NCBI GenBank assembly: GCA_044344255.1
Contig: JBIJDH010000021.1
Coordinates: forward strand, 84,045-148,044
DNA length: 64,000 nucleotides
Direction of reading: 5' to 3'
DNA from: Myxococcota bacterium
Lineage (GTDB): Bacteria > Myxococcota_A > UBA796 > UBA2385
The notes under the pieces were generated by a model that saw only the letters and a program-made list of their open reading frames with translations, ran no database searches and was not told the origin of the DNA. A program made the translations under genes and the position numbers. Of this stretch, positions 42,117 through 61,963 are shown piece by piece. The first letter of the stretch is position 1. Each line of letters starts with the position of its first letter.

Positions 42117-44354
<2,238 letters not shown>

Positions 44355-44410: not shown

Positions 44411-45232
44411 TCAGCCGTTCTCGGCGGATCGGAGCCCGTCGGCGCGCGGGGAGGGCGGCTCGGGGCTCCGCGCGCCGTACTGCGCACGCTGGAGGGCCCG
44501 GTAGAGCAGGACCAGCGAGGCGGTGGCGAGGGCGAGGCTGAGGCCCCAGGAGAGGTCGGTCGAGGCCCAGGCCTCGGCGGCCCGCGCGCCGCCAAACGCG
44601 GCCCCGCAGAAGAGGGGCGCGCCCAAGAGGACGAAGAGCGTGCCGTGTGTCCCCGAGAGGTCGCGGCGGACGGCCATGGCGCGACCGCGGCGCCCGAGCC
44701 GGGGGGCGGCGAAGGCGGGGTGGGTGACCGCCCCCTCGAGGGCCGTGGTGAGTGCATGGGCGACGGCGTCTGCGGCGGCGGCGAGGTCGGCGCCCTGCGC
44801 GTCCGGGGAGCCCCCCTCCGGCGGCGCCGAGAAGGTGAGGCGAGCGTCTCCGTCGGCCCAAGAGAGCTCCAGCAGCCCCGCGTCCCCGCGTGCGCGGAGG
44901 AGGGCCTCTCGGAGCGACGCCACCTGGAGCAGGGCGGCGCAGCGCTCGGGGTCGGTGGTGACGACGCAGAAGGCGAGGTCAAAGGTGGGGTCACCGCTCG
45001 GGACCATCGCCTCTCCCTGACAGTGGCCGAGGGGGCCGAGGCTGCGGCGGTCACGGAGGCAGAGCTCGATCGCCGGGTCGCAGAGGAGGCCGCCTCTGCG
45101 CAGCCGGATCCCGCTGGACAGCCCCTCCTCGCGCCCGTCGGCCGCGTCCCCGGGCGTGTGGGCCTGCGCGAGGTCCACCACGGTCCAGCCGCTCCCCTCG
45201 CCAGCCGCCTTGTGTGGGGGCCCGTCGTTCAT
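44411..45232 (-). CDS. Hypothetical membrane protein
   Basis: GGAG RBS + ATG 45232; SGDPTFDLAFCV segment and two C-terminal TM helices. Confidence 0.5.
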   Translation of the reverse strand: MNDGPPHKAAGEGSGWTVVDLAQAHTPGDAADGREEGLSSGIRLRRGGLLCDPAIELCLRDRRSLGPLGHCQGEAMVPSGDPTFDLAFCVVTTDPERCAALLQVASLREALLRARGDAGLLELSWADGDARLTFSAPPEGGSPDAQGADLAAAADAVAHALTTALEGAVTHPAFAAPRLGRRGRAMAVRRDLSGTHGTLFVLLGAPLFCGAAFGGARAAEAWASTDLSWGLSLALATASLVLLYRALQRAQYGARSPEPPSPRADGLRSAENG

Positions 45233-45412
45233 CGATGCAGCTCCGAGTGTGGGAGGGCTTGGGCGACTGTCTCGCGCGGGGTCTTGAGCTTCTGGGTGGG
45301 GAACTTGAAGACTCTGGCACGGAACCCATTGGCCCCTCATTGGAGAGGAGCACCGCTGAATGTGATCCGCGCCTACCGTGATCATGATCATGGGATACGC
45401 ATCTTTCTGCCC

Positions 45413-45468
45413 GGGCCCCCTCGTTTGAGCCCCCTCGTTTGAGCCCCCTCGTTCGAGCCCCCTTGTTC
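45413..45468. repeat. 14-bp tandem repeat (GAGCCCCCTCGTTY) x4 upstream of the giant operon
   Basis: Directly visible; followed by the partly complementary GAGGGAGGGGGG. Confidence 0.85.
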
Positions 45469-45498
45469 GAGGGAGGGGGGCGGGCAGATGAGGACTCG

Positions 45499-46371
45499 AT
45501 GCGAATTCGTCTGAGCTTGGATGGCGTCTGGTCACGCGGTTCGGAGCGGCTCCGCGAGCCCCTCCTCTGGCCGGTGTGGTTCGCGGTCGATGACGCGGCG
45601 CTGCGCACCCTCGCCGGAGACCTGCGCGCGGCCGACGTCCTCTTCGCCCCGGGTCCGCTCGCCGCCGAGCAGCGGATGCCCTGGGAGCGACGCCTCCAGC
45701 TCCAGGCCCTGCCGCCCGAGCGAGCGCTGATCGGGCTGGCGGTCCTCTACTCCGAAGGCGGCGCCACCCTCCACGAGACCCGCGCCGCCTATGACGCGCT
45801 CCAGGAGCGCATCCTCGCCCTGGTGCTCGCGGAGGGCGCGCAGGCGAGCGGGCTCGGCGCGCTGCTGTCGGCCTTCGGCGGCCCGGTCTCCCTGGGGCCC
45901 GACCGGGGGCATGACCGACGGGCCCGCGCCGCGCTCCTCGAGGGGATGGACACCGCGGAGCTCGAGCGCTGGGTGGACGTCGACACGATCGAGCGCCAGC
46001 GGGGCCTCCGCGGCCTCGGCGCCGCCCTCTCCCGCGCGCTCCCCGGCGGCGCGGCGGCGCGACCCGAGCGGCCCGCCACCCCCGTCGAGCGGGCGACCCT
46101 CCCCGAGCGGGTGACCCTCCCCGGCGGCGTCGTCCGCCCCGAGCGGGTGACCCTCCCCGAGCGGGTGACCCTCCCCGGCGGTGTCGTCCGCCCGGAGCGC
46201 CCGACCCTGTCCACCTTGCTGTCGGGGACCGTGGTCGCCGGCACGGTTCAGGCCTGGGCGCCCTCGGGGCTCCGCGCCGGTGAGCCGCACACGGTCGAGC
46301 GCCCCTTGCCCACCCGTGTCGCGCTCCGGTCGAGCCTCGTGCTCCGCGCTTCGCTCTCCGTGGAGGTCTGA
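45499..46371 (+). CDS. Hypothetical protein, first gene of the giant operon
   Basis: GAGGA RBS; MRIRLSLDGV..EPLLWPVWFAVDD; internal TLPERVTLPGGVVRPER repeats; ends 3 nt before the giant gene. Confidence 0.7.
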   Translation: MRIRLSLDGVWSRGSERLREPLLWPVWFAVDDAALRTLAGDLRAADVLFAPGPLAAEQRMPWERRLQLQALPPERALIGLAVLYSEGGATLHETRAAYDALQERILALVLAEGAQASGLGALLSAFGGPVSLGPDRGHDRRARAALLEGMDTAELERWVDVDTIERQRGLRGLGAALSRALPGGAAARPERPATPVERATLPERVTLPGGVVRPERVTLPERVTLPGGVVRPERPTLSTLLSGTVVAGTVQAWAPSGLRAGEPHTVERPLPTRVALRSSLVLRASLSVEV

Positions 46372-46374
46372 ACG

Positions 46375-49300
46375 ATGCCCCTCGTCCGTGGCGCGACCCT
46401 CTTTGACCTCATCACTGAGCTCCCGCCGGGCGCTCAGGGCTTCATCCCCGAGTCGGTCAACCAGTTCATCAACCTGCTCAACATCGCCGAGCTCCAGAGC
46501 CGCAGCTCCGGCCGGTACTTCCTGCACAGCGGGCGGGTGCAGTCGGCCTCGGAGGCGGGGCTCGCGCTGGGCGCCAACTTCCCGGTGGAGATCCCCGGCC
46601 TCAACGTGGGCGTGCCCTTCCAGCTCGCCTGGGTGCGGGCCACCGTGGGCACCGCCGCGACAGACCTCGAAGGGGAGCCCACCGGCTGGATCCTCGACCT
46701 CTTCCTCGAGCGGGTGGCCGTCGTCGTCCCCATCGGGCAGGCCGCCCGCCTCGTGCCCACCGCCGCCGTCGCCCCCGCGCACCTCGAAGCGGCGGGCGGC
46801 GGGCGGGTCAAGCTCTACGCCCGCGGTGTGCTGCGCATCGAGGGCGGGGCCGGGGGCTCACGGGTGCGGGTCATCGCCGATCCCGATCCTTTCGTCCCCG
46901 ACGCTGCCATCGGCGCCGTGATCGAGACCGGCTTCTCGCCGCCCCACCTGCTCCTGCACGAGAGCGGCTTCGGCCTCACCGTCAACCGCGTGGTGCTCGA
47001 CCTCTCCGACGCCTTCACCCCGGCCGACATCGTCGCCCGCGGGCACGGCGCTGACTTCGAGGGGATGACCATCACGGAGGCCACCCTCTACTTCCCGCGC
47101 AACCTCCCCTTCGTGGGAGACGTCAACATCGGCGTGCGCGATCTGCTCATCGGCTGGTCGCCCACGCCGGCCTTTCAGGGTGAGGCGCGGGTGGAGCTCG
47201 GGCTTGCCCTCGAGAGCGCAGCGGCGGTCGCCTTCTTCCAGGACGTGAACGGTGTGCTGGTGCCCCTCGGCGGGCCCAGCGGCTCGGGCACCGCGCTCAC
47301 CGTCACCCTCCACCCCGACACCGGGCCCCGGGCGCGCCTCTTCGCCCGCATGACCACCCCGGGGGTCGAGCCCTCCTGGACCTTACCCGCCGGCGGCGGC
47401 GTCACCGGCGTCGACACCGGCTGGTTTGAGGTCGGGATGCCGTCGGGCAGCCCGCTGCGGGCCACCGAGCGGCGCACCGGCGCCGACGGTGAGATCACTG
47501 ACGGCCAGGAGCGCAGCTTCATCTTCGTGCGGGCCGCCGCCTCGACGAAGCCGGAGCACGCGCCCCCCATCCGCGTGAAGTACAGCAACACCGGCTTCTC
47601 GCACGCCTGGGACGACGTCGCCTCGCTGCGCGGCCCGGGCACCGCCCTCGACTTCGTGGCCTTCGAGGCCGTGACCACCGGCCTCTCCACCGAAGACATC
47701 GCCGGCCTCCGCTGGCAGTGGGAGAAGGAGGGCAGCAGCCAGAGCGGGAGCGGCGAGAGCTTCGCCCCCGACGTCGGCTGGTCGATGGGGCGGCACACCA
47801 TCACCCTCAAAGACCGCCACAACCACGTCCGGCGCTGCGTGATCGAGTCCTCGGCCACCACCGGCGACACGCTCTTCGTGGGCCACCGCGGGGGAGGGGC
47901 CCGCCAGGTCACGGGCGCCACCGACGTCGCCGCCACCCTCGCCGCCGTCGAGAACTCCTGGGACCTCGCCGCCTTCCACGCCTCGGACGGCCGGAGCGGG
48001 GCCCGCAGCGCCGCCACCCTCGCCGGGGCCACGCTCACCGTCCCCAAGGGCGCCCTCGCCGAGGTCACCGTCGCCGTCGGCACCCCCGCGGAGCCCGAGG
48101 CCCCCGTGGTGCCCGCCGCCGAGCCCCCCTTCCGCCACGTCCGCGTGCGGATGACCTTCAACCAGACCGACCCCACCGGCTGGAGGAAGATCCGCCCGGT
48201 CTCCACCCGGCCTTACGGCCCCGCCGAGCCCTACCCCACCTTCGCCGGCGGCCTGCCCTTGGTGAACACGCCCGAGGAGCAGCTCGACCCGAGCTTCACC
48301 ACCGCCAAGCTCGGGGAGTGGGCCTCCGGGCTGCCCGCCGACACCCGCTTCGTGGTCGTCGGCCGCTGCTGTGACCTCGGCACCCTCTCCCGCAACATCG
48401 AGCTCGCCGACGCGCGTGCGAAGATCGGCCGCGATCTGCTCGTCACCGCCGGCATCTCCGCCGATCGGATCCGGTTCGTCGGCGAGCAGGGCACCACGAA
48501 GGACCCCGACGCCGGCTTCACCACGGCGCTCCAGTTCCCGACCGCCCCGCAGCCGGTGAGTGACACAGACCTCGAGCCTCGGATCCACGAGGAGTGGGCC
48601 TTCAAGGCGTATCACTCGGCCACCACCCGCACCGCCTGGGGTGACACCCAAGACCAGCCCGAGCGCAAGGAGGGCCGCGGGGTCGACATTTACGCGATGG
48701 TGCCGGCCGCCGCCCCGGTCGAGACCGCCACCCCCACCGACGCCGCCACCCGGGCCACCTCCCTCGTCCGACTGCTCGTGCCCGGTGAGAACATCGACGT
48801 GGTCGAGCCCTTCGAGGCCAAGGGCCTGCGGACCCCCTACCGGGTCGAGGTGAAGGCCAAGTGGGACTCCCCCTCCATCGTCGAGGCCGCCGACTGGGTG
48901 CCCACGATGGCGCAGGTGACGGTGGAGTGGGCCTCCTCGGCCGTGCCGGTGCCCGGGCTCGCCGATCCCGTCACGCCCACCCGCCCGAGCGGCACCCCCT
49001 CGCCGACCGATCTCTGGCGCGTCATCGGGCGCTTCAGCACCGATCTGCGCAGCGGGCAGACGAGCTACCTGCTCTCGCTGGACTCCATGGGCGACGCCGA
49101 CGGCCTCTTCGCCATCGTCTCCCCCGGCGCCGGCCGCGCCGACGAGACCGTCGCCGTCGGCCTCGCCCTCGCCCCGGCGCTGCTCGGCGGGATCACGACG
49201 GATGACCCCGCTGGCGCCGCCGTCCGCATCGGCGCCCTCATCGCCGCCTCCGCCGCGGCGGCGGCCCTGCAGCTCGACGGACAGCACGTCATCAACGACG

Positions 49301-52300
49301 GGCGTGTGATCGTCGAGAAGCTGGAGGGCGAGGTCAAGCTCCGCGCCATCGACGCCACCGACGGCATGAAGATCCGCATCGGCGTGGATTACACGGCCTC
49401 CTTCGGCGTGAAGGCCAACGTGGCCGGCGCGGTGGGCGTGAGCACGATCTCGCCCATCAAGGTCAAGTACAAGAACGTCGGCCTCGAGTACGAGCACGAC
49501 ACGGCCAAGCCGCTGCTGGAGCGGATCCGCTTCGTCTTCGAGGACGCGAAGTTCGAGGTGGCCGACCCCGGCCGTTGGGCGATCACCGGGGCGCTCGGGC
49601 GGCTGCTCGGCATCACCGCGATCCGGGTGGGCGCAGGCTCCGTCTGGATCGAGGTCGACGTCGAATTCGCCCTCGACCTCGGCGTGGTGGAGATCTCCCG
49701 CACCACGATCCGGGTGGAGATTCACACCGAGAGCACCCCGCCCACCCTCTCGGTCTCGATCCGCGGGATCAAGGCCAAGATCGACGTCCCGGGCACCATC
49801 AAGGGCAAGGGGGAGCTGAGGGTCCTGCCGGACGGCTTCGGCGCCTCGCTCGAGCTCGACATCCTCCCCGCCAAGCTCAAGGCCTGGGGCGGCTTCGTCG
49901 TCCGCCCGCCGATGGTGCACATCGAGGGCGGGGTGCGCTTCGCCACCGGCATCCCCCTCGGCAGCACCGGCCTCGGCCTCTTCGGCTTCGCGGGGCGCTT
50001 CGTCGCCAACGGGCAGCGGAACCTCAGCGGCCTCGATGCCACCGACATCATCGCCCGCGAGGTGGGCTGGCACGACCGCGCCCTGGTGGACAAGTACAAC
50101 CCCCAGCAGGGGCAGTTCGCGATCGGCTTCGGCGTCTACGTGGGCACGCTGCCCGACGCCGGCTTCACCTTCAACGCCCTCGGCATGCTGACCGTCGCCT
50201 TCCCCGACGTCTCGGTCGTGCTCGCCATCGACGCCACCCTGCTCTCCGCCGAGCCCAAGTCGGCCACCGAGACGAAGGCCGCCGGCACCGACGCCGGGCT
50301 CCAGCTCCTGGGCATCGTCTCGGTCGATCCCACCGCGATCGGCATCGCCATTCGGGGCAAGTACACGATCCCCAAGGTGCTCATCCTCGAGGTGCCGATC
50401 GGGGCCTACTTCCCGCTCCAGTCGAGCGCCGTGGGCGCCTATGTGCGGGTGGGCTCGGACGGCGCCGGCGGGCGGCCGGACCGGCCGGTCACCGTGCGCA
50501 TCCTGCCCGACCTGCTCGATCTGCGCGCCACCGCCTTCTTCATGGTGGAGGAGCGGAAGCTCCACGACCTCGGCGGTAAGCCCCAGCTCGACTTCGACGG
50601 CTTCTCGATCGGCTTCGGCGCCGGGCTGTCGGTGAAGTGGGGCGGCGGGCCCATCTACCTCCGCGCCTCCTTCTCGCTGCTGGTCGGCCTCGGCACCCGC
50701 CCCTTCACGCTCGCCGGCGGCATCTACGTGCAGGGGGAGCTCCGGCTCATCATCATCAGCATCAGCGTGACGGGGGAGCTCGAGGCCCGCATCACGGACA
50801 AGGGCGCGATGCTCCGCGGCGAGTTCTGCGGGGAGGTCGACTTCTTCTTCTTCAGCGTCGAGGGCTGCGTCAGCTTCACGGTGGGCTCGGAGCCCGCTAT
50901 CGACCCCCCGCCGGCCGACCCCCTCGTCTCGGGCCTCGTGCTGGCCGACAAATTCTCGCGGGTGGTGGGCGAGGGTGCGGCCTCCCTCGGCGCCCTCACC
51001 GACGCCCACACCGCCTGGCCGGACGCCGCCCCGGTGCTGCGCTTCAGCCACGGGGTGCGGAACGGCCTCGGCGCGAGCGGCTACAAGCCCACCCCGTCGA
51101 ACGGCTGGGGGGCGGCCTGGAGCGGCACCAACCGCGTGCGCTACCTCTACGAGCTGCAGGCGGTCGAGCTCTTCAAGCACCCGGCCTCGGGGCCCGCGCT
51201 CGCGATCGACACCACCACCTGGCCCTCCGCCTGGTGGCTGCCGGCCTTCCGAAACGCCGTCCCGGCCTCGGGCGACACCTCCGCCAGCACGCACGAGGGC
51301 TGGGACCTCGCGCTCAACCAGTGGGCGCCGGCCCCCTGGTCGCGGGTCCACACCGAGGGCGGCGAGGGCCTGGACGCCGATCCCGCCGACAGCGTCGGGC
51401 GGCTCTGCGAGGATGCCCCGCTCCCCACCCGCCACTGCGTCTTCGGCGCCGACGGTCAGCGGCTGTCGGTGGGCTTCGTCCGCGTCGTGGGCGCGCCCTC
51501 GGGCCAGAGCCCCTATCCGCCCGACTTCTTCGTCCACCTCGAAGAGGGCCTGCCGCCCGCGCTCAGCGTGCCCTCACTCTCGGCCCTGGCCTCCCTGCTC
51601 GGCCTCGGCTTCTCACCCGGGGGGCGGGTGGACTTGCCGGAGCCCTTCACCCCGACCGGCGAGCCGGGCGCGATGACGGCCGCCTGGCGCCTGCCCCGCT
51701 TCACGCGGGACGGCTTCACGGCGATGAGCCTCGGCGGCATCGGCACCTTCGTGCCCGAGGTCTCGTTGCCGCAGCTCCTCCTCGGCGTCTGCATCGAGCT
51801 GCCCGAGCTCGACGACGTGAAGGAGACCTGCCTCGACACCCGCCGCATCCAGCCGAGCGAAGAGCGGCTGCCCCGCTTCGTGCTCGAGGACGTGATCTTC
51901 GAAGATCGCGGTGAGGGGATGCGCCTGACGAGCCGCTTCCCGCTCGGGGCCCCCGACGACGCAGGCGAGATCAACTTCTCCGAGAAGGGCCTGCTCGTGC
52001 GGCTCCCCCACGATGTAGACGCCGTGACGGTCGAGATCGGCCTCCTCAAGGACAAGGCGGTCCGCGTCTCGGCCCGCCGCGAGGACGGCGGGGAGGTCGA
52101 CCAGGACCGCGCCGAGCTCGACGCCCCCGGCACCGTCACCCTCCGGCTCACCGGCGGCGGCATCCGCCTCCTGCACATCCGGGCCTCGGGGCCGACCGCG
52201 CACCTCATCCGCCTCTGCACCGAGACCGGCGGGGGGCGGCGCGAGGAGAAGCTCATCGCGCACATCCTGTCGATGTTCGGCCCGCCGCGCCCGCAGTCTT

Positions 52301-53874
52301 CGGCGGAGCTCGGCCGCCTCGAGGGCCGCGAGCCCGCCCGCCTGGCGCTGCCCCGCGTGCTCGGCACCCGCAAGGACGAGGGCGGTCAGAATGTCGATGA
52401 GGACTGGAACGGCGAGGTGATCGGCGCCAGCGTGCACGACCGCCACGGCTGCGTCTACATCCGCTACAGCCCGAAGCTCCCGGGGCCGTGGAGCCGCTTC
52501 ATCGTGGCGCCCTACCCCTGGTTCGAGCTCTCGATCTTGCGGGTCTGCGCCATCCGGCACGGGGCGCTCGTCGCCGCGGCGCAGGACGACCAGAACCGCG
52601 AGGAGCTGCAGGACGCCTGGAACGACGCCGCGACGGGGCCGGCGATCACCCGTTACCAGCTCCTCGACCCCGACAGCCGCTACGAGGTGCGGGTCACCGC
52701 GCGCGCCGCGACCTGGGTGGGGGCGAAGCCCACCGATCTGCCGCCCGACGCCAGCGCCCTCGACTTCGGGGCCCCCCCGGCGGGGGTCTCGGTGGTGGCC
52801 GCGCCGCAGTCCTTCTTCTTCCGCACCGCGCCTGCGGGGGCCCTCCCCGACGACCGGGTGCTCGACTTCGCGCAGCAGCGCCTCTTCGACCCCCGCGCCC
52901 TCGGGCGCTACCTGCGCGGCTTCGACCCCGTGGCCGAGCTCCCCTCGCACCTGCGGGCCGATCCGCTGCTGGTCTGGTTCGAAGAGGAGTGGGTGGAGGA
53001 CCTCCTCGACCGTTACGGCTACAGCCTCACGCTCGTCCTCCAGCGCACCGATCCGCCGCCCACGCCGCCCTCCGGCGTCGCCCCCATTGTCTTCCCCTTG
53101 ATCACGGTGAGCTGGGTGGGGCTGCCCTATGAGCTCCGCAACCTCGCCGATCAGCGGATGATCGACGCCGCCACCGAGGCCCCCTGCCTCGAGGACGCGC
53201 CGAAGGAGGGGGCCACCGCCCTCATCACCGCCGACCTCGAGCCCCGCGCCCGGTACGACCTCGTCGTGCAGGCGAAGCGGGCGAGCGACGGCGCCCTCAC
53301 CGAGATCGGCCGCGGGCACTTCCGGGCCTCCCGGTACACAGACGCTGGCGCCCTCATCGAGGCCACCGGCTTCCGCCTCGTCGGGTCGAACCCCTTCTAC
53401 CCGCTCGACCTGCTGGTGGGCGCGGCCCCGCCCACCGACCAGCGCCTGAACGACGACGCCCTGCTCGACCAGGCGCTCTCCGACCTCGGGCTCGACCCCT
53501 TCACCCCCGCCTCCGAGCCGCGGTCGGTGGTGCTCTGGCGGCAGATCGGGTCGAGCTGGAGGCTCGTGGGCCTGCTCCTCGACAGCGACGAGGCGCTGAT
53601 CCGCGGGCCGCGGCTCACCGATCCGGGTCCCAACCCGCCAAGGCTCGAGATCCTCGAGGCGCGGGTGCCAGGGATCCCCGCCTTCCTGCCCTCAAAGCTA
53701 GTCCCGGTGCGCTCGAACCAGGCCGCCACTCGCGTCCTGCTGGCCGCCACGGGCGGAATCGCCGTCCCCGCCGACGGCGTGCTCGAGCTCAGCTTCCGGG
53801 AGCCCGCGGGCACCCGCATCGCCAGACGAAACCTGCTCTCCCTCCCGCTGGTCATCGCTCAGGAGCGTCCATGA
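46375..53874 (+). CDS. Giant 2499-aa beta-rich protein with PKD-like, OmpA-C-like and DUF6603-like regions
   Basis: GGAGG RBS; uninterrupted ORF with strong GC3 bias; OmpA-like VVGRCCDLGTLSRNIELADARA..LVTAGISADRIRFVGE; long Gly/aromatic amphipathic beta tract (~49300-50900). No signal peptide. Confidence 0.9.
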   Translation: MPLVRGATLFDLITELPPGAQGFIPESVNQFINLLNIAELQSRSSGRYFLHSGRVQSASEAGLALGANFPVEIPGLNVGVPFQLAWVRATVGTAATDLEGEPTGWILDLFLERVAVVVPIGQAARLVPTAAVAPAHLEAAGGGRVKLYARGVLRIEGGAGGSRVRVIADPDPFVPDAAIGAVIETGFSPPHLLLHESGFGLTVNRVVLDLSDAFTPADIVARGHGADFEGMTITEATLYFPRNLPFVGDVNIGVRDLLIGWSPTPAFQGEARVELGLALESAAAVAFFQDVNGVLVPLGGPSGSGTALTVTLHPDTGPRARLFARMTTPGVEPSWTLPAGGGVTGVDTGWFEVGMPSGSPLRATERRTGADGEITDGQERSFIFVRAAASTKPEHAPPIRVKYSNTGFSHAWDDVASLRGPGTALDFVAFEAVTTGLSTEDIAGLRWQWEKEGSSQSGSGESFAPDVGWSMGRHTITLKDRHNHVRRCVIESSATTGDTLFVGHRGGGARQVTGATDVAATLAAVENSWDLAAFHASDGRSGARSAATLAGATLTVPKGALAEVTVAVGTPAEPEAPVVPAAEPPFRHVRVRMTFNQTDPTGWRKIRPVSTRPYGPAEPYPTFAGGLPLVNTPEEQLDPSFTTAKLGEWASGLPADTRFVVVGRCCDLGTLSRNIELADARAKIGRDLLVTAGISADRIRFVGEQGTTKDPDAGFTTALQFPTAPQPVSDTDLEPRIHEEWAFKAYHSATTRTAWGDTQDQPERKEGRGVDIYAMVPAAAPVETATPTDAATRATSLVRLLVPGENIDVVEPFEAKGLRTPYRVEVKAKWDSPSIVEAADWVPTMAQVTVEWASSAVPVPGLADPVTPTRPSGTPSPTDLWRVIGRFSTDLRSGQTSYLLSLDSMGDADGLFAIVSPGAGRADETVAVGLALAPALLGGITTDDPAGAAVRIGALIAASAAAAALQLDGQHVINDGRVIVEKLEGEVKLRAIDATDGMKIRIGVDYTASFGVKANVAGAVGVSTISPIKVKYKNVGLEYEHDTAKPLLERIRFVFEDAKFEVADPGRWAITGALGRLLGITAIRVGAGSVWIEVDVEFALDLGVVEISRTTIRVEIHTESTPPTLSVSIRGIKAKIDVPGTIKGKGELRVLPDGFGASLELDILPAKLKAWGGFVVRPPMVHIEGGVRFATGIPLGSTGLGLFGFAGRFVANGQRNLSGLDATDIIAREVGWHDRALVDKYNPQQGQFAIGFGVYVGTLPDAGFTFNALGMLTVAFPDVSVVLAIDATLLSAEPKSATETKAAGTDAGLQLLGIVSVDPTAIGIAIRGKYTIPKVLILEVPIGAYFPLQSSAVGAYVRVGSDGAGGRPDRPVTVRILPDLLDLRATAFFMVEERKLHDLGGKPQLDFDGFSIGFGAGLSVKWGGGPIYLRASFSLLVGLGTRPFTLAGGIYVQGELRLIIISISVTGELEARITDKGAMLRGEFCGEVDFFFFSVEGCVSFTVGSEPAIDPPPADPLVSGLVLADKFSRVVGEGAASLGALTDAHTAWPDAAPVLRFSHGVRNGLGASGYKPTPSNGWGAAWSGTNRVRYLYELQAVELFKHPASGPALAIDTTTWPSAWWLPAFRNAVPASGDTSASTHEGWDLALNQWAPAPWSRVHTEGGEGLDADPADSVGRLCEDAPLPTRHCVFGADGQRLSVGFVRVVGAPSGQSPYPPDFFVHLEEGLPPALSVPSLSALASLLGLGFSPGGRVDLPEPFTPTGEPGAMTAAWRLPRFTRDGFTAMSLGGIGTFVPEVSLPQLLLGVCIELPELDDVKETCLDTRRIQPSEERLPRFVLEDVIFEDRGEGMRLTSRFPLGAPDDAGEINFSEKGLLVRLPHDVDAVTVEIGLLKDKAVRVSARREDGGEVDQDRAELDAPGTVTLRLTGGGIRLLHIRASGPTAHLIRLCTETGGGRREEKLIAHILSMFGPPRPQSSAELGRLEGREPARLALPRVLGTRKDEGGQNVDEDWNGEVIGASVHDRHGCVYIRYSPKLPGPWSRFIVAPYPWFELSILRVCAIRHGALVAAAQDDQNREELQDAWNDAATGPAITRYQLLDPDSRYEVRVTARAATWVGAKPTDLPPDASALDFGAPPAGVSVVAAPQSFFFRTAPAGALPDDRVLDFAQQRLFDPRALGRYLRGFDPVAELPSHLRADPLLVWFEEEWVEDLLDRYGYSLTLVLQRTDPPPTPPSGVAPIVFPLITVSWVGLPYELRNLADQRMIDAATEAPCLEDAPKEGATALITADLEPRARYDLVVQAKRASDGALTEIGRGHFRASRYTDAGALIEATGFRLVGSNPFYPLDLLVGAAPPTDQRLNDDALLDQALSDLGLDPFTPASEPRSVVLWRQIGSSWRLVGLLLDSDEALIRGPRLTDPGPNPPRLEILEARVPGIPAFLPSKLVPVRSNQAATRVLLAATGGIAVPADGVLELSFREPAGTRIARRNLLSLPLVIAQERP

Positions 53875-56800
53875 GCGCCTCGCCTCCCCCCTGGGCCTTC
53901 GGCGCCGTCGCCATCGACGCCGCGGGCGATCCGCACCTCGCGCCCGGGGTGCACCTCCGGGTGTTCACCGCCCCCGCCTTCGGCCTGCCGATCCGACCCT
54001 TCGTGGTCTACCGGGCCACCGATCAGGGCGCCCAGCGCCTGCTCCGCGAGCAGCTCCACCACGACATCACCTGGGTGGACCGCCGCGGCCGGGTGCGCAC
54101 CCTCCCCTTTGAGGTCACCCCCGAGAACCCGGTCACCGGGCACATCCCCCGCGGGCCGGGCCAGCGCGCGATCGCGGTCGGCCTCGGCGGCGCGGGCAGC
54201 GGAGGGCAGCTCCACCCGGAGGGGCTGGCGATGGTCGCGCCGCGTCCCGGGGCGCAGGGCGAGCTCCGCCTCGAGGCCTTCATCGACGGCCCCGCCGGGC
54301 GACGGGTGGTGGGCGCCCGCGAGGCCGCGCCCTACCAGCTCGCCGCCCCCGACCTCCACGGCGTGGTGGTGTCGGGCGCGGGGGTGGTGCGCACCGCCTT
54401 CTGGTTGTCCGCCGACGTCTCGATGGTCGACAAGCTCGAGCCCGCCTTCCTCCTCGACCTGCCGGTGCCCAAGGCCGCCCGCTACGAGGGCCTCCCTGAC
54501 GCGCCCAGCCGGGCGATCGACCGGGTGAAGCGCGGCGCCCCCCAACGCTTCGGCCTGCACGATGATCCCACCGTGAGCGGGCCCGCCGCCGCGGCGCCGG
54601 CCACCGCCGACGATGAGCTCAAGCGGGTGGGTCCGCTGGCCGAAGAGGTCTTCCCCGCGCTCGACCGGGCCTTGAACGACCTCAGCCAGCGCCCCGCCGC
54701 CCTCCGGACCGCGCAGACGCTCTCCGAGGGGGCGCTGACGGGCTCGGTCGCCCAGGCCGACGTCGCCTGCTTACGCGCCGTGCTCGCCGGCACCGCCGAC
54801 CCCGGCATGGGCCGCTTCCTCGGCTTCCTCGACGTCGACACGCTGCCCGTCGAGTCGGGCGCCACCTTCGTGCTCTACTTCGTGCGGGCCTTCCTCGCCT
54901 TCGACCCCGCCGAGCTCGAGCCCATCGAGGCCCTCGCCGCGCTGCTGAGCGGGGGCGTGCTCACGGCCGACCTCAGCCCGCCGGGCCTCCCCTTCTCGGT
55001 GCCGAAGCGCTCGGCGGACGGGCTGCTGGTCTTTGATTACACCGTCCCCGTCGTGGTCTTCATGGGGGCCTCCCCCGATCGACCGCTCGCCCCCGTCCTC
55101 AGCGCGCCGCTCGCCCCCTCGGCCCAGGTGGGCCCCACCGGTGAGGCCCCCGCGGTGACCCTCGACGGGCAAGGACCGTGGAACGCCGACTTCCTCCCCC
55201 CAGAGGCCCGACGGGAGGTGGTGCTGCCCCTCTCTTCGCTGGTCGCCGCGCCCACTCTGGCCATCGCGCGGAAGGACGCCTCCGGCCTGACCTCGATGAA
55301 CGACCACCACCCCGTGAGCGGCCGCGCGCTCGCGCTCGTGCCCGCCGTGCCGAGCGACGCCGTCGTGACCGGCGCCGGCCGCTGGGCCGACCGCGCCGCC
55401 CCCGAGGGGGCCCTGCACTACCGGGTCGCCCAGGCGGACTGGTTCGGGCGCTGGAGCGAGTTCTCCACCCGCGCGGTGCCCGGGAAGGTCCGCCCTCCGC
55501 CCCCCGCGCCGGTCTTCGAGCTCCACTACGCGCTCGCGTCGGCGACCCCGCTCGATGACGCGCCCCGCTTCGGCGCCCTGCGGGTGCGCCTGAACGTGCC
55601 GCGGGTGGACGACCTCGCCGCCGGCTCCCGCCTGCTCGTGCGGGCCAAGGTCACGGCGGTGGTGGGTGGCCTGACGGTGAACGTCGAGGCGCCTCTGCCG
55701 AGCCCGTCTGCCCGCACGCTCGACGTGCTCATCCCCGGCCCCGCGGGCCTCATCCCCCGCGCCGGCCAGGTCGAGGCGACGGTGAACGCGCGCTGGAACG
55801 ACGGCGTCCTGGACGGGCCCCTGGGCGAGCCCCAGCAGAAGCTGCTCCCCGACCCTCGGCCCCCCGCCGCCCTCGTCCTTGACCCCATCCTCCGCTACTC
55901 GGCGCGCCCCGACGCGACCGGCCGCGCCCGCGTCGTGCTCGAGTGGGACGCCCCGGCGGGCGCCCGCTACCGCGTCTACAACACCGACGAGACCCGCCTC
56001 CGCAGCGCGCTCGGGGAGGCCTCGACCGCCGGGAGCGCACTGGCGACGGGCCTCCTCGGCGAGCTCAACGGGCAGAGCGACCCCGCCGTGCGCGGCGCCG
56101 CTTACACCACCCTGGGCCGGGCCAGCCTCTACCCTCGGGAGCTGTTCAACAACCTCACCGCTCAGCCGCTCGTGGCGGCGGCGGCGGGCAAGATGCGCTT
56201 CTCGCACGACCTCTCGGGCTCGCTCACGGTCCTCTCCTTCTTCAAGGTGGTGACCCTCTCTGTCAACAACGTGGAGAGCCCCTTCACCGACGCCGTCCTG
56301 CTGCCGGTGGGCGTGCCCTCCGGCGGGCCGCCGCCGCGGCCCCTGCTCGACTTCCTGGGCTTTGATGAGGCCGGGGCGGCCCGGCTCCAGGTCACCGTGG
56401 TGCGCGGCCCGCAGCCCGCGGCGACCTACCGCCTGCGGCGCAGCTACGCCGCCTCCGAAGATCCGCTCCAGATGCCCGTCGTCGGGGTCGGCGCCGTCGT
56501 GGCCGACGATCCCGCCGCGCCGGGCCCGCTGGTCTTCACGCTCACCGACAGCGGCGCCGACACCCTGGCCGGCGGCGCCCTCCGCCCCTGGACCCGCATG
56601 AGCTGGCGGGTGGAGGTCGCCGCCCCCAGCCCCGCCGGCAGCGCCCTCCCCGGCGACTGGAGCGCCGCCAGCGGCGCGGTGAGCGGCATGCGCGTGCCGC
56701 CCGCCCCCGCGGCCCCGCACGGGCTCGCGATCACCGCGGTCGGCCCCTCGGACACCGGCCTCGAGTGGGGCCAGCCGGACCCCCTCGAGAAGGGCAGCCA

Positions 56801-57026
56801 GGGTGGCTACCGCTTCGACGTCTACCGCCGCGCCCCCGGTGGCGCCGAGCAGCGCGCAGGCACCGTCCTGGCCGACGATCCCACCGCCAAGACCGGAGCG
56901 GGCGCCGCCCGCCGCTTCCACTTCACCGACAGCGCCGGCGCCTCCGCGGGCACGAGCTGGCGGGTGGTGGTGCTCGACCCCATCGGCCGAACCAGCCCCC
57001 CCTCTCCCACCGTGACGCGGAGCTGA
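53871..57026 (+). CDS. 1051-aa protein with multiple FN3/Ig-like beta-sandwich domains
   Basis: YRVAQADWFGRWSEFS, VVLEW..YRVY, PPAPAAPHGLAIT..LEW..FDVYRR..WRVVVLDPIGRTSPPS; ATGA overlap with the giant gene. Confidence 0.85.
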   Translation: MSASPPPWAFGAVAIDAAGDPHLAPGVHLRVFTAPAFGLPIRPFVVYRATDQGAQRLLREQLHHDITWVDRRGRVRTLPFEVTPENPVTGHIPRGPGQRAIAVGLGGAGSGGQLHPEGLAMVAPRPGAQGELRLEAFIDGPAGRRVVGAREAAPYQLAAPDLHGVVVSGAGVVRTAFWLSADVSMVDKLEPAFLLDLPVPKAARYEGLPDAPSRAIDRVKRGAPQRFGLHDDPTVSGPAAAAPATADDELKRVGPLAEEVFPALDRALNDLSQRPAALRTAQTLSEGALTGSVAQADVACLRAVLAGTADPGMGRFLGFLDVDTLPVESGATFVLYFVRAFLAFDPAELEPIEALAALLSGGVLTADLSPPGLPFSVPKRSADGLLVFDYTVPVVVFMGASPDRPLAPVLSAPLAPSAQVGPTGEAPAVTLDGQGPWNADFLPPEARREVVLPLSSLVAAPTLAIARKDASGLTSMNDHHPVSGRALALVPAVPSDAVVTGAGRWADRAAPEGALHYRVAQADWFGRWSEFSTRAVPGKVRPPPPAPVFELHYALASATPLDDAPRFGALRVRLNVPRVDDLAAGSRLLVRAKVTAVVGGLTVNVEAPLPSPSARTLDVLIPGPAGLIPRAGQVEATVNARWNDGVLDGPLGEPQQKLLPDPRPPAALVLDPILRYSARPDATGRARVVLEWDAPAGARYRVYNTDETRLRSALGEASTAGSALATGLLGELNGQSDPAVRGAAYTTLGRASLYPRELFNNLTAQPLVAAAAGKMRFSHDLSGSLTVLSFFKVVTLSVNNVESPFTDAVLLPVGVPSGGPPPRPLLDFLGFDEAGAARLQVTVVRGPQPAATYRLRRSYAASEDPLQMPVVGVGAVVADDPAAPGPLVFTLTDSGADTLAGGALRPWTRMSWRVEVAAPSPAGSALPGDWSAASGAVSGMRVPPAPAAPHGLAITAVGPSDTGLEWGQPDPLEKGSQGGYRFDVYRRAPGGAEQRAGTVLADDPTAKTGAGAARRFHFTDSAGASAGTSWRVVVLDPIGRTSPPSPTVTRS

Positions 57027-57030
57027 GATC

Positions 57031-60000
57031 ATGGCGACCACGCTGAACCCCGCGCCGCGCTCCCTCGGCCTGCACAGCCCCGTGCTCGGCCCCTGGTTCT
57101 CCACCGCCGACGTCACGCTGCCGCTGCCCGACGCCGACCTCGCCTGCTCGCTCACCATCGGCGACAACGTCGAGTGGCGCCCCCCCGCCGGGGGGCTCTT
57201 CTCCCTCTACGTGGCCTCCGCCACCCGGCCGGCCGGGCTCAGCCGCCTGCGGGCGCCGAGCGGCGCGCCGGCCTTCACGAACGACCGCCTCGTCGCGGTC
57301 TTCGAGCTCCTCCCCGAGGTGAGCGAGCGCCTCGGGGCCTTGATGCGGGTGATCCCGACCGCGGGCAACCCGGCGGTGGCGAACCTCGCCACCCGGCCGC
57401 CGATCCGCACGCTGGCGATCGAATTCAACGAGCCGAGCCCGAGCCTCGCCTTCCTCACCGCCCGCCTGCCGACCGGCTTCGCCTTCCCGGCGACGGTGAC
57501 CTCGGACGCCGACAAGCTCACCTACCTCGGCCTCGCCGCGGGGGCGGTGCTCATGAGCGGCCCGACGCCGATGCGCGACCTCTTCCGTCCGGGCGTCACG
57601 GCCGGGAGCTCGGAGGTCCTGCTCCGCTTCCCCGCCGACACCCCGGTGCGGCTCTGGACCTTCGACGGGCGGGGGCGCGCTGTGGACCCCGGCGCCGCCG
57701 CCTGCTGGTGGCTCTTCCTCGCCACCCAGGCCACCGTCGGCTTCGTCGATCTCTTCGCCCAGGGCATCGACGCCGCCGATCAGCGCACCTGCTCGGTGGC
57801 GCCGGGCGCCGATCGCCTGACGGTGCAGCTCTGTAACGCCCACGAGGGCCCCCTCGACCCCGCGGCGCTCGCCCGCCTCACGATCGGCGGGAACGTCGAC
57901 GGCACCGACAGTCTGCGCTTCCGCGGCGCCGCCACCGACGGCGGGGTCGACCTCTCCTTCACCGACGCCGCCGCCGGCGCCCCCGACGACCTCCCCACGC
58001 CCCGCATGGCCGTGCTCCCCGACGGGCGCCTCGGCGCCTCGCTGAGCCTCTTCCCCACCGGGGCGATGGACCCCCTCCTCCGCCGCGATCAGGTGCGCGT
58101 GGCCGTGCTCTCCGTCGAGCACCAGCTCATCGGGCAGCCGCGCAGCGCCGACACCAGCGCGCCCGAACCCGTGCGCCGCCGCGCCGCTGATCAGGAGCGG
58201 GCCTCCACCCGCCAGCTCATCGGCAAGGCCGCCCGCCCGGCCCTGCTCCTCGACGATGACGCCGTCGCCGCCGCGGCGGTGGCCACCCTCTCGCTCGTCG
58301 ATGGGGCCACCGCCGTCCCCGCCCGCCTCGTCGCCCCGGCGATGAGCCTCGACTTCGGGCCGCTCACCGCCACCCCCGCCGACGTCGCCGTGCCCACCTC
58401 CCTCACGATGAGCGTCCAGGCCCTCGTCGGCGGGGGCGCGGCCGTGGGGAGCACGGTGGTCGATCAGCGTGTGCTGCTCCGCGTCGACCTCGGCGCCGCC
58501 GCGGCCGGGGCCTGGCTCCGCGCCTGGAGCCAGGGCTTCGACCCCGAGAAGGGGGAGCGCTTCCGCCTCGACGGCGGCGCCGCCTTCGCCGACACGACCG
58601 GCCGGGTGCGCCTCGTGCTCCCCTTGCCCACCGGGAGCGCCAGCTCGACCGCGCCCCTCGGCGTTGACCTCCTGGTCGTGACCGCGCAGGGGAGCCGCCT
58701 CTTCGCCGACCAGCGCTTCGAGCGCCCGAGCCCCGTGGGTGGCGCGCCCGTCGCCGCGAGCGCCGCTGTGGGTCCGATCCTCCTCGCCGAGGAGGGCCGC
58801 GAGGTGCCGAGCCTCACCGCCGGCGTCGACCTGCGCCCCGGCACCACCGCGGTGGCCCTCGGCGGGAGCCCGACGCGGGTCGACCCCGCCTCGATCCCCA
58901 TCGCCGCGCGGCAGGGGGCCTGCTTCGCGCGCGCCGCCGCCGCCGGAGACACGCTCCGGCTCACCCAGCCGGCCTTCCCGACTGCGCCCGTCGGTGACGC
59001 CGAGGCCGCGCTCGGCGCCACGGGCGCCACCGTCCGTCGCACCGCCCGCCGGCTGCCCGCGGCCTGGCAGGCCGGCTTCCCGCTCCCCGGCATGGAGCGC
59101 CACGAGCTCCTCGGCGCTGCCACCACGGCGAACGTCAGCCGGGCCTTCGTGGGCGGGGGCGCCGCCCTCGGGCTCCGCCACGGCCGGGGCGCCCACCACG
59201 ACGGGCACCCCGGCGGCCCCGCCAGCGATGACCTCGTCAGCACCGGCGTTGACCTCCAGGGCCCCGCCGTGCTGGGCCTCGCCGAATTCGCAATCGAGCG
59301 CGGCTCCACTGACAGCCTCGACCTCGCCACCTCCGCCGCCGACGCCGCGATCGTCGCCCCCGCCGAGGCCGCCGCCCACACCCTCTGGGCCGCCGGCCTC
59401 CGCACCGTGGCCGCCGGCGTCGAGGCCGAGGTGGGCCTCGCCGCCCTCTTCGACCTCGGCCTCGGCGACGCCTACCCCTTCGGGCAGACCCTGACAGACA
59501 TCCGCGACTTCCTCTCCGGGGTGGGCCTCACCCTGCCCGCCACCCTCGCCGACCCCGCCGGACGGGTGGCCCGGGCCCTCGACCGCCGCTTCCTCGCCGC
59601 CGCGCACGGCGCCCGCGAGGGGGCCACGGCGCTGCTCGCCGCCGTCCGCCGCGCCGAGGACCTCGTCTATATCGAGACCCCCGCCCTCGACGACAAGGCC
59701 TTCGGCGGCACCGACGACACGGTCGACCTCCTGGGCGCCCTCGTCACCCGGATGGCCGAGCGCCCCGGCCTCGTCGTCGTCCTCTGCCTGCCGGTCTTCT
59801 ATGACAGCCGCGTCCCCAAGCCCCTCCAGCGCGTGCGCGACGCCGCCCTCCGGCGGGCCCTCGACACGCTCCAGGGTGGCGGTCGCGAGGCGCGGGTGGC
59901 CGTCTTCTCGCCCTCCGCGGGGCCCGGGCGCACGCTCAAGCTGGCGACCACCACGGTGATCGTCGATGACGCCTGGTGTTTGGTCGGCAGCACCCACCTC

Positions 60001-60384
60001 TGGCGCCGCGGCCTCAGCTACGACGCGTCTTACGCGGTCGCCCTCTTCGACGACGAGCTGGCCGAGGGCCGCCCCCGGGAGCTGCTCGACTTCCGCCGCC
60101 GGCTGACCGCCAAGCGCCTCGGGGTGGCGGTGGACGAGGTGCCCACCGACCCCGTCGATCTCTGCGTCTCCGTGCGCATCTTCGTCGCCCGCGGCGGCTT
60201 CGGGCGCCTCGCCGCCGACCGGCTCCGCCCCCCCGAGGAGGCCACAACCTCGCTCACGAGCGGCACCTTCACCGAGGCCGACGTCTGGAACCCCGACGGC
60301 AGCCCGCCCGCCGGGCTGAACCCGCTCGTCTGGGCGCTCCAGCTCACGCCCACCGCGGTGACCGAGTCCTTCACCACGCCCTGA
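57031..60384 (+). CDS. 1117-aa protein with a C-terminal phospholipase D-fold domain (degenerate HKD)
   Basis: AVRRAEDLVYIETPAL and KLATTTVIVDDAWCLVGSTHLWRRGLSYDAS match the PLD scaffold, but the His and Lys of HxKxxxxD are replaced. Confidence 0.8.
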   Translation: MATTLNPAPRSLGLHSPVLGPWFSTADVTLPLPDADLACSLTIGDNVEWRPPAGGLFSLYVASATRPAGLSRLRAPSGAPAFTNDRLVAVFELLPEVSERLGALMRVIPTAGNPAVANLATRPPIRTLAIEFNEPSPSLAFLTARLPTGFAFPATVTSDADKLTYLGLAAGAVLMSGPTPMRDLFRPGVTAGSSEVLLRFPADTPVRLWTFDGRGRAVDPGAAACWWLFLATQATVGFVDLFAQGIDAADQRTCSVAPGADRLTVQLCNAHEGPLDPAALARLTIGGNVDGTDSLRFRGAATDGGVDLSFTDAAAGAPDDLPTPRMAVLPDGRLGASLSLFPTGAMDPLLRRDQVRVAVLSVEHQLIGQPRSADTSAPEPVRRRAADQERASTRQLIGKAARPALLLDDDAVAAAAVATLSLVDGATAVPARLVAPAMSLDFGPLTATPADVAVPTSLTMSVQALVGGGAAVGSTVVDQRVLLRVDLGAAAAGAWLRAWSQGFDPEKGERFRLDGGAAFADTTGRVRLVLPLPTGSASSTAPLGVDLLVVTAQGSRLFADQRFERPSPVGGAPVAASAAVGPILLAEEGREVPSLTAGVDLRPGTTAVALGGSPTRVDPASIPIAARQGACFARAAAAGDTLRLTQPAFPTAPVGDAEAALGATGATVRRTARRLPAAWQAGFPLPGMERHELLGAATTANVSRAFVGGGAALGLRHGRGAHHDGHPGGPASDDLVSTGVDLQGPAVLGLAEFAIERGSTDSLDLATSAADAAIVAPAEAAAHTLWAAGLRTVAAGVEAEVGLAALFDLGLGDAYPFGQTLTDIRDFLSGVGLTLPATLADPAGRVARALDRRFLAAAHGAREGATALLAAVRRAEDLVYIETPALDDKAFGGTDDTVDLLGALVTRMAERPGLVVVLCLPVFYDSRVPKPLQRVRDAALRRALDTLQGGGREARVAVFSPSAGPGRTLKLATTTVIVDDAWCLVGSTHLWRRGLSYDASYAVALFDDELAEGRPRELLDFRRRLTAKRLGVAVDEVPTDPVDLCVSVRIFVARGGFGRLAADRLRPPEEATTSLTSGTFTEADVWNPDGSPPAGLNPLVWALQLTPTAVTESFTTP

Positions 60385-60409
60385 GGGCCACTCCTGGAGG
60401 GCGCGGGGG

Positions 60410-60456
60410 CGGCGCCCCCTTGCTGCGCCGGGACGGCGCCCCCTTGCTGCGCCGGG
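60410..60456. repeat. 24-bp tandem duplication downstream of the giant operon
   Basis: CGGCGCCCCCTTGCTGCGCCGGG(A) x2. Confidence 0.8.
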
Positions 60457-60489: not shown

Positions 60490-61005
60490 ATGCGTCGTCT
60501 CTGGATCGGCCTCGCCGCGGCTGCGCTCGTTGGGGTGGCGCTCACCTTCAACACCTCGTCTCCGGTGCTCGACCGTGACGTGGCCCTCGGCCCCTTGCCG
60601 ATCGCCGACTGGTCGGGGGCGGCGGTCGACCTGACGGGCCGGCCCTGGATCATCAACGTCTGGATGCCGGCCTGCGCGCCCTGTCAGCGTGAGGTGCCCG
60701 GCCTCGTGGCGGCGCGGGAGGCCTGGGAGGCCGAGGGGGTTGGCTTCCTCGCGGTGTCCATCTCGCCGGAGCGCCCCTGGGTGGACGCCCACGTGAAGCG
60801 CTGGGGCTTTGACCTCCCCCAGGTCCACACCACCGGCAACCTGCTGGAGCAGGTCGGCGTGACCGAGGTGCCCTTCACGATGCTCGTCTCACGCGAGGGG
60901 CGGCTCGTCGGCCTCGCCAAGGGCGAGCAGGACGCCGACTACTTCGACACCGCCGCCCGCGCCCTCCTCGCCGCGGGCCCCCCCGCGGTCACGGCCTCCC
61001 GATAG
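60490..61005 (+). CDS. TlpA-family thiol:disulfide oxidoreductase
   Basis: N-terminal anchor, IINVWMPACAPCQREVP (CxxC) and cis-Pro motif VPFTMLVSREG. Confidence 0.88.
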   Translation: MRRLWIGLAAAALVGVALTFNTSSPVLDRDVALGPLPIADWSGAAVDLTGRPWIINVWMPACAPCQREVPGLVAAREAWEAEGVGFLAVSISPERPWVDAHVKRWGFDLPQVHTTGNLLEQVGVTEVPFTMLVSREGRLVGLAKGEQDADYFDTAARALLAAGPPAVTASR

Positions 61006-61018
61006 GCTTGTCGGGGCC

Positions 61019-61963
61019 TCAGAGGCAGTCCACCGTCTCTTCGGAGTAGCAGACCGGCGCCTCGGCGCAGAGATCGAGGGCCATCCCGTCGGGGCAGGAC
61101 CAGCCGCTGGTCTCTCCCAGCGCGAAGGTGGAGCCGATAGAGTCGGAGGCCGACCAGAGGATGTTGCCCGCGTAGTCCTGTCCGGCCATCGCGGCGTCGT
61201 CGGTGAGGCTGCCGGTGGGGAAGGGGCCCGCCACCTCGGCGCCGAGCCCCGCCGGTCCGCCGGCGTTGTACCCTTCAAACTCGACGATGTGGGTGCCCGA
61301 CGACAGGGTGATCGGCTGGATCCACCAGTACTTGAAGTTGTCGGTGTTGTCGTCGGTGTTGTTGAAGAGCAGCACGCCGTCGACGGCGAAGCGCATCCGG
61401 TTGTCGGCGCCGAGGCCGAGCAGGTACTCGCCGGGGGTGGTGATGTCGAGGCAGACCGAGAAGCCGATCCACTCGTCGACCGGGTTGTAGCCGGAGGTGG
61501 TGGAGTCGCCGTCACAGGCCCAGACCCCCTCCGCGTTCATGCGCCCGTCGGGCACGCCATCGTTGTCTCCCCAATAATCATCCGATACGACCGTGCCGCC
61601 CGGATAGCGGGCCCCATACGACCCATAGTCGGGGTGCGGGATCAACGGACAGACCGGATAGCCGTCGCCGAGGAAGAGGGGCTCCTCCTCGGTGCGGCGG
61701 GTGCAGCCGTCGTCGGCGGGGAGGGCCGTGAAGCCCTCGGGGCAGTCGCAGCCGCTCGGGGTGACGGCGGTGTCGACCGGCGGCGCGGTGTCCTCGGGGG
61801 CCGGGCTGTCCTCGGGGGGCGGCGCGCTGTCCTCGGGCTCGGCCGTCTCCCGGGCGGGGGCCGCGGGAGCCTTATCGGGGTTGATCTCGTAGTCCGAGCA
61901 GGCCGCGAGCAGCAGCAGGGAGGCCCGTCGACCCGGAGCGGAGAGCGGAGACCGGCGGCGCAT
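61019..61963 (-). CDS. Lipoprotein with a PA14-like domain and Cys-rich segments
   Basis: Lipobox LAAC; ITTPGEYLLGLGADNRMRFAVDG..ITLSSGTHIVEFEGYNAGG. Confidence 0.7.
   Translation of the reverse strand: MRRRSPLSAPGRRASLLLLAACSDYEINPDKAPAAPARETAEPEDSAPPPEDSPAPEDTAPPVDTAVTPSGCDCPEGFTALPADDGCTRRTEEEPLFLGDGYPVCPLIPHPDYGSYGARYPGGTVVSDDYWGDNDGVPDGRMNAEGVWACDGDSTTSGYNPVDEWIGFSVCLDITTPGEYLLGLGADNRMRFAVDGVLLFNNTDDNTDNFKYWWIQPITLSSGTHIVEFEGYNAGGPAGLGAEVAGPFPTGSLTDDAAMAGQDYAGNILWSASDSIGSTFALGETSGWSCPDGMALDLCAEAPVCYSEETVDCL

Follow-up and report, generated by a model that had tools for sequence, protein, structure and literature searches.

What might four adjacent genes for very large proteins do in a bacterium, when their products match no named system? 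The question is posed by a stretch of 64,000 nucleotides from a Myxococcota bacterium (assembly GCA_044344255.1, contig JBIJDH010000021.1, positions 84,045 to 148,044, forward strand), called here the window and numbered from its first letter. Four co-directional open reading frames (ORFs), A to D, lie at 45499-60384. An earlier note, made from the sequence alone, had placed these ORFs and their junctions exactly as we find them, and had proposed either a lipid conduit tethered to the cell's own peptidoglycan or a non-classically exported adhesion, predation or toxin assembly. In the present analysis B, C and usually D form a conserved unit, and our first but tentative choice is a leaderless particle, with these proteins as its co-translated subunits, that docks on the envelopes of other cells. 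The four genes are as follows.

45499..46371, + strand: gene A, 290 amino acids (aa) from an ATG; accessory
46375..53874, + strand: gene B, 2499 aa; core subunit
53871..57026, + strand: gene C, 1051 aa; obligate partner of B
57031..60384, + strand: gene D, 1117 aa; predicted pseudo-phospholipase D

The conserved unit and its spread

In the window, 3 nucleotides lie between A and B, B and C overlap in an ATGA (-4), and 4 nucleotides separate C from D. Relatives of B were sought in a scan of one genome per species, which gave 258 relatives, and the best 80 of the 258 were kept as loci. Wherever a locus extends past B (72 loci), C follows it; the remaining 8 stop at a contig edge. D follows C in 52 of the 66 loci with sequence past C and is absent from 14; 6 more are cut inside C. 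The linkage is also seen from the side of D: in a set of 60 D-anchored loci fetched from metagenomes, C is directly upstream in 35/35 and B precedes D in 23/23 with enough flank. The B-C junction is -4 or -1 in 40 of 64 cases. The conserved unit is B-C-D, with B-C as its core and D usual but dispensable. The "four-gene operon" of the earlier note stands for these three genes, and gene A, with a tblastn match in 4 of the 80 loci (some of them without upstream sequence), drops out as a clade-restricted accessory. That note had let its case hang on the homologues co-occurring elsewhere, and they do so decisively, B and C staying together in all 72 testable loci.

In Gemmatimonadota loci L002-L004 the operon starts with a homologue of A of the same size. 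For L007 and L009, the A domain aligns with the N-terminus of a protein of ~700-740 aa, whose C-terminal extension is repeat-like, has no Pfam match and looks propeller-like by eye. Because A is rare and is part of longer proteins in these two loci, it is regarded as accessory. A short internal peptide repeat of A (PERVTLP-type units, window 46081-46210) falls in a stretch that varies from homologue to homologue.

The coding character of the ORFs is clear from base composition: the G+C content at third codon positions (GC3) is 0.92-0.96 across A-D, against 0.52-0.58 at second positions (GC2). The ratio of nonsynonymous to synonymous change (dN/dS, by the Nei-Gojobori method, which is rough at high GC) is 0.10-0.29 for B, C and D over seven homologue pairs. 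All three are thus under purifying selection, and are therefore real genes; frameshifts and chance ORFs were rejected on the GC3 pattern and dN/dS. Each of A, B, C and D is present in one copy in the 8.18-Mb host genome.

The hosts include Gemmatimonadota, Myxococcota, Actinomycetota, Pseudomonadota, Chloroflexota, Bacteroidota, Acidobacteriota and Bdellovibrionales, and a remote homologue is also found in a haloarchaeon (Haloferax). Among the cultured hosts, Halomonas nitroreducens, Pelomonas sp. Root405 and Planotetraspora have B-C-D, and Paracoccus aminophilus has B-C only. The monoderm Actinomycetota supply 25 of the 65 rows of the B tree. In a FastTree phylogeny of the B core the phyla are interleaved, and loci without D fall in at least two separate clades. 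Of 60 relatives of the host, a single one has a full D. Plasmids carry copies as well: B-C is on pAMI4 of Paracoccus aminophilus, a remote B-C-D is in Rhizobium tropici, and a remote B-C is on pHME322 of Haloferax mediterranei. The rarity in relatives of the host, the interleaving of phyla and the plasmid copies indicate an accessory cassette with a mobile-like spread. No relative was found in viral contigs, and no flanking family recurs widely beyond A-D in the 80 loci (BLAST clustering of crude ORF calls). One locus (L048) is titled Chitinophaga, yet its B is placed among Sphaerotilaceae, with a very short branch; it is probably a misbinned contig or a recent transfer.

The third gene slot is exchangeable. 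In L060 (20341-22497) and L066 (20338-22482), D is replaced after C by a 719-aa protein with a weak Peptidase_M66-like match (19.7 bits, cut-off 20.6), and in Haloferax the slot holds a gene with a Baseplate_J domain, to which we return below. In 10 genomes without D at the locus no D orthologue was found elsewhere; partial matches resembling phospholipase D (PLD) were seen in 3.

Anatomy of the subunits

Proteins A-D are nearly invisible to family libraries. In Pfam their sole match is to OmpA, below cut-off, at B 644-705, NCBIfam gives weak, sub-cut-off OmpA/Pal matches only, and no toxin family is matched in either library. PADLOC 2.0 finds 0 families for 4/4 proteins, and single-sequence searches against the PDB return nothing significant. 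The literature search (few subscription papers, no supplements) found no paper naming DUF6603 or PF20248, and no relevant paper joining a baseplate or an extracellular contractile injection system (eCIS) with OmpA, PLD or fibronectin domains; for pseudo-PLDs it returned FAM83 papers only, and supplementary tables might list cassette genes. The statement in the earlier note that no named system fits is thus borne out in family, structure and literature searches. We rate B-C-D as new as a system, since no family library, solved structure or paper found describes one.

An evident export signal was also said to be missing from A-D, and the N-terminal hydropathy agrees, being low in all four. The best 19-residue Kyte-Doolittle window near the N-terminus reaches 0.70-1.12 in A-D (0.70 in B) and 1.75 in the next gene; the assessment combines this window with inspection of a subset of homologue N-termini.

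Gene B can be divided into the following parts.

46375..47214, + strand: B 1-280, conserved N-terminal domain without signal peptide (homologue conservation, hydropathy)
48142..48699, + strand: B ~590-775, OmpA-C-like module, predicted to bind peptidoglycan; fast-evolving
48841..50886, + strand: B 823-1504, modelled antiparallel amphipathic beta-meander of ~33 strands; slowest-evolving part
49135..49266, + strand: B 921-964, hydrophobic helical hairpin inserted in the sheet; conserved in homologues
51814..52233, + strand: B 1814-1953, jelly roll resembling a carbohydrate-binding module (CBM); one copy here
52822..53871, + strand: B 2150-2499, C-terminal region, conserved and recognisable in the Haloferax homologue too

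The PKD-like segments of the earlier note stay putative, residues 290-575 of B having no Pfam match. The OmpA-C module scores 21 bits, under the 27.2 cut-off of PF00691. The profile of the B family, however, matches the C-domain of OprF at E 7.6e-8, and the Asp and the Asn-x-x-Leu-x-x-x-Arg motif of B align to those of OprF and OmpA. D667, N674, R681, R764 and R768 are kept in 38/38 homologues, and the motif is present in 58 of 61 matches to the region. The OmpA-C-like segment noticed earlier is therefore upheld by the OprF match and the invariant Asp and Arg, and is a predicted peptidoglycan binder. The equivalent Asp and Arg of OmpA are reported to bind diaminopimelate (DAP; PMC5974059). The Asp/Asn/Arg motif is retained in two Ornithinimicrobium loci (L025 and L026), from a genus whose wall has ornithine rather than DAP (PMC9973731; PMC6113628). 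The B module shares profile and motif with OmpA-C, Pal and MotB domains, but it differs from them in lying in the middle of a leaderless giant of ~2500 aa, in evolving fast and in occurring also in Gram-positive hosts.

How fast the arms of B change was compared in 15 non-overlapping pairs of close homologues. The mean pair identity is 90% for the sheet, 87% for the N-terminal domain, 82% for the C-terminal region, 69% for the OmpA module and 67% for the CBM, and the last two are each below the sheet in 15/15 pairs. In two Planotetraspora loci (L019 and L036) the OmpA module is 58% identical and the protein elsewhere 91-97%. Synonymous differences between these two are also in excess in the module (20/57, against 45/437 in the sheet; Fisher p 4e-6), which points to exchange of the OmpA module. 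The number of CBM copies varies too: among 52 proteins, 39 have one, 3 have two, 9 have three and 1 has four.

The structure of the middle of B was read from a model of residues 822-2000, whose predicted local accuracy (pLDDT) is 77 and predicted template-modelling score (pTM) 0.45. One side of the modelled sheet is ~80% V/L/I/A/G/F and the other ~71% G/S/E/R/A/T/D/K. Fold searches with the whole model were filled by porins and CBMs. Against porins the sheet reaches Z up to 14.2, at a root mean square deviation (rmsd) of 10-12 Å over ~260 residues; since the alignment is obtained only at such rmsd, the sheet is taken to be a large curved one without a close solved relative among the matches listed. 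TamB, VPS13 and ATG2 were not among the matches listed in three fold searches with B 822-2000; as the sheet was folded only within that fragment, they may still be relatives. Low-TM matches in BFVD to CBM-bearing tail proteins were not used. An outer-membrane beta-barrel would call for a signal peptide and a diderm host, whereas no leader was seen in B and Actinomycetota hold the large share of the tree given above.

The B sheet is related to DUF6603, as the earlier note had suggested, but at a distance. DUF6603 clusters are its top language-model neighbours (0.94), and the family is annotated on 12-23% of the cluster members. Two remote homologues of B (P0081 and P0085, E 1.9e-40 and 6.6e-31 to B) pass the PF20248 cut-off with 42 and 40 bits, and are the 2 of 20 homologues that do so; B itself has no match to PF20248 at E up to 1. 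The amphipathic sheet and a remote relationship thus stand, and membership by score does not. Compared with DUF6603 giants, which it resembles in its sheet neighbours and in these remote homologues, the B subfamily adds the OmpA-C module, the hairpin, the CBM array and the fixed partners C and D.

Residues 1814-1953 of B align with CBMs of families 4, 22 and 29, the best matches having Z 12.6-12.8 and rmsd 2.5-3.4 Å. Domains of Vip1, Cry8Ba and Clostridioides difficile RBD1 match less well (Z 9.3-10) and share the fold only. The earlier description of B was incomplete: neither the CBM cassette, with its variable copy number, nor the hydrophobic hairpin appears in it.

Among 50%-identity representatives, 943 are related to C at E <=0.001; neither the window copy nor any of 20 close homologues has a Pfam match. 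Gene C probably encodes several domains of the fibronectin type III (FN3) or immunoglobulin (Ig) type. The earlier label "FN3-like" survives as a lead: the C profile matches FN3 proteins weakly (E 0.07-0.8), its atlas neighbours lie at 0.86-0.87, under the 0.9 mark, and its internal repeat is weak (probability 18%), hhalign among 21 segments giving no confident internal repeat. Between loci with and without D (44 vs 13), no segment of C is lost. A complex prediction of C 1-620 with B 2145-2499 scored 0.23 (mark 0.32), which is no evidence either way. A stoichiometric multi-subunit complex, as the earlier note supposed, is suggested by the gene coupling only.

In gene D the model is one compact unit (pLDDT 88.4, pTM 0.92), with the following features.

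58195..60291, + strand: D 389-1087, two-lobed PLD fold (structural match of the model)
58384..58740, + strand: D 452-570, Ig-like insert in the PLD fold (structural match)
59098..59106, + strand: D R690-x-E692, degenerate first HKD motif (His and Lys positions)
59944..59967, + strand: D A972-x-T974...D979, degenerate second HKD motif, with only the Asp kept

The model aligns with human PLD2 (6ohm; Z 26.6, rmsd 3.3 Å, 425 residues aligned), plant PLD-alpha (6kz8, Z 24.8), vaccinia F13 (9fhk, Z 24.1) and Pseudomonas aeruginosa PldA (7v53, Z 21.7); Foldseek matches it to PLD at E 1.2e-12. Identity to solved PLDs is 13-15%, and the D profile finds nothing among PDB sequences, so that the fold is read from the model alone. 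The PLD fold that the earlier note saw at the end of D is thus present and is larger than had been stated.

Both HKD motifs are lost throughout the family. In lobe 1, in a register taken from strand position and a downstream AFVGG motif, R690 and E692 are each kept in 37 of 41 homologues and in 46 of 47 of the metagenome set. In lobe 2, position 972 is A, D, R or M in 40 of 41 (mostly A or D) and H in one, and position 974 is mostly T, also S or M, and never K. D979, D980, G986, R992, R993 and D998, on the other hand, are invariant in 41/41. H989 is found in 35 of 41 D homologues and is missing from the remote subfamily; an alternative catalytic His is therefore unlikely. These results suggest that D is a catalytically dead PLD. 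It shares the full two-lobed fold of the superfamily but differs in the loss of HxK, an extra N-terminal region and the Ig insert. An active PLD toxin of the Tle5/PldA type was rejected, two HxK(x)4D motifs being absent. D 3-245 also resembles M23 proteins, but so weakly (Z 7.5) that the match does not rise above noise; it is kept as a lead only.

Possible functions of the cassette

The computation shows the gene linkage, the folds of D and of B 822-2000, the dead HKD motifs, the amphipathy of the sheet and the variability of the modules; from these features we infer a complex, a route of export, a foreign target and any lipid binding or killing. The particle would be built in the cytoplasm and would leave by lysis or another non-Sec route. 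The exchangeable arms of B (one to four CBM-like domains and the OmpA-C module) would recognise surface glycan and DAP-type peptidoglycan, and its curved sheet, with one aliphatic face, would engage the target membrane together with the hairpin, either extracting or holding lipid or inserting. C would serve as an FN3/Ig-type scaffold. D, as a dead PLD, might bind lipid head groups or cap the particle without cutting, and could be lost or replaced. Retention of the OmpA motif in Ornithinimicrobium, although its residues are reported to bind DAP in OmpA, speaks for a foreign target. A bolder form of the proposal, which we think doubtful, is a new class of weapon or foraging particle, made of three proteins and released, that relies on no known secretion or injection system: its swappable arms would select the target, the sheet would be a lipid-extracting groove or a membrane-inserting half-barrel, and the pseudo-PLD a lipid-sensing cap.

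Several observations weigh against such a particle. The 80 loci share no conserved neighbour gene for a toxic enzyme, immunity, lysis or export. The folded parts are D and B 822-2000 only, and the model of the latter is of moderate quality, the concave side of the sheet being unreadable. The dN/dS of the OmpA and CBM arms is 0.11-0.68 and never above 1, and their rapid change may be relaxed constraint. Finally, the Haloferax homologue of B has no detectable OmpA domain, and its host is without peptidoglycan, as would be expected no less if the domain bound the wall of its own cell.

Were the bolder form true, bridge-like folds that handle lipids would reach beyond housekeeping into conflict between cells. 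Work on the cassette would give a first functional handle on giants related to DUF6603, and could bring to light a new route of export or a mechanism acting between bacteria. A 14-kb cassette that is under purifying selection and is present in many phyla and a haloarchaeon has had no function assigned to it. Its anatomy joins a family-wide bacterial pseudo-PLD, a predicted peptidoglycan-binding domain in a protein without visible export signal, and variable arms, like those of tail fibres, on a giant amphipathic sheet.

The rival that stays closest to the conduit of the earlier note is a bridge-like lipid-transfer machine in the cell's own envelope, with a groove like that of AsmA, TamB or VPS13, the hairpin as anchor, a tether to own peptidoglycan, and D sorting lipids. 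Its appeal lies in the long amphipathic meander with a mostly aliphatic face, which is the most conserved part of B, in the PLD-fold partner, and in the seeming loss of OmpA in an archaeal host without a wall. In the model, B shares with AsmA-like and repeating beta-groove (RBG) bridges (TamB, YhdP, VPS13) a long antiparallel sheet with one hydrophobic face. However, its strands are longer and partly superpose on porins at the rmsd given above, and it has neither the N-terminal membrane helix nor a Pfam match to the Chorein-N or AsmA domains, features that define AsmA-like proteins (PMC10345924). There is no visible route by which the OmpA domain would cross the inner membrane, housekeeping transport needs no variable CBM arms, and the cassette is accessory rather than core, being patchy and present in monoderm and haloarchaeal hosts. 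The own-wall tether is further weakened by the fast evolution of the OmpA module and by its Asp and Arg in an ornithine-wall genus. The conduit is weakened overall, and we consider it improbable. The alternative of the earlier note, the non-classically exported assembly, fits better than the conduit. In one form it would be an adhesin or biofilm scaffold, with OmpA-C on the own wall, CBMs on environmental polysaccharide and the hydrophobic face as a subunit interface in a tube or cage. Variation in CBM copy number, partners rich in Ig/FN3 domains and the lack of any toxic domain found speak for it, but it leaves unexplained the strict retention of the pseudo-PLD with its six residues invariant in 41/41, the conserved hairpin, the OmpA swap and the OmpA motif in ornithine-wall hosts, and we give it a low probability.

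A link to contractile injection systems, in which the cassette would be the accessory tip, fibre or cargo apparatus of an eCIS or type VI secretion system (T6SS) encoded elsewhere, is raised by Haloferax. On pHME322 (L087:9892-23005) the remote B-C pair precedes a gene of 1142 aa that ends in a Baseplate_J domain (47 bits), and also a gene for a MoxR ATPase. The annotation of the 12 kb upstream and the ~44 kb downstream of the match lists neither sheath nor tube gene; halocin H4 is encoded ~10 kb downstream. The Myxococcota host has an eCIS-like locus on another contig (C52:240952-256432), with PF14065, two sheath genes and a 1178-aa Baseplate_J frame. Particles of this kind typically have leaderless subunits. 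Of 50 cassette hosts, 17 carry the eCIS marker PF14065, compared with 13 of 101 genomes of one background order, an unmatched comparison. The marker was looked for in 50 of the 80 loci, many of the genomes being incomplete metagenome-assembled genomes (MAGs), and has no match in the other 33 of the 50; VipB was found in 0/5 hosts. In the host's order, where the marker is unusually near-universal (58 of 61 genomes sampled), D is present in 2. Nor is any tube, sheath or spike family conserved in the flanks of the 80 loci, as an eCIS or T6SS locus would demand, and relatives in viral contigs are lacking. An injection accessory is accordingly very unlikely. So is a cytoplasmic complex, whether an anti-phage sensor or effector or a lipid-body scaffold, in which CBM and OmpA domains would sense wall fragments and the hairpin would sit in the own inner membrane. 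The missing signal peptides and patchy distribution suit it, and PLD folds are common in defence systems, but PADLOC gave no match, no defence family recurs in the flanks, D is predicted to be dead, and Ig/FN3, CBM and OmpA domains are normally extracellular.

Surroundings in the window

Directly upstream of gene A is a short repeat array.

45415..45470, + strand: 14-bp tandem repeat, 4 units

Neither a sigma-70 promoter nor a terminator was found in window 44800-46400. Two 24-bp tandem repeat units follow D at 60401-60448. Further downstream are a gene for a TlpA-like thioredoxin (60490-61005) and, on the minus strand, one with a weak PA14 match and Cys-rich ends (61022-62056), neither of which recurs beside other copies of the cassette. 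The neighbours on the other side, at 42117-44861 on the minus strand and 38732-42103 on the plus strand, are ordinary: a Kup potassium transporter with a PE-repeat N-terminal extension and a PAS-GAF-HD-GYP phosphodiesterase.

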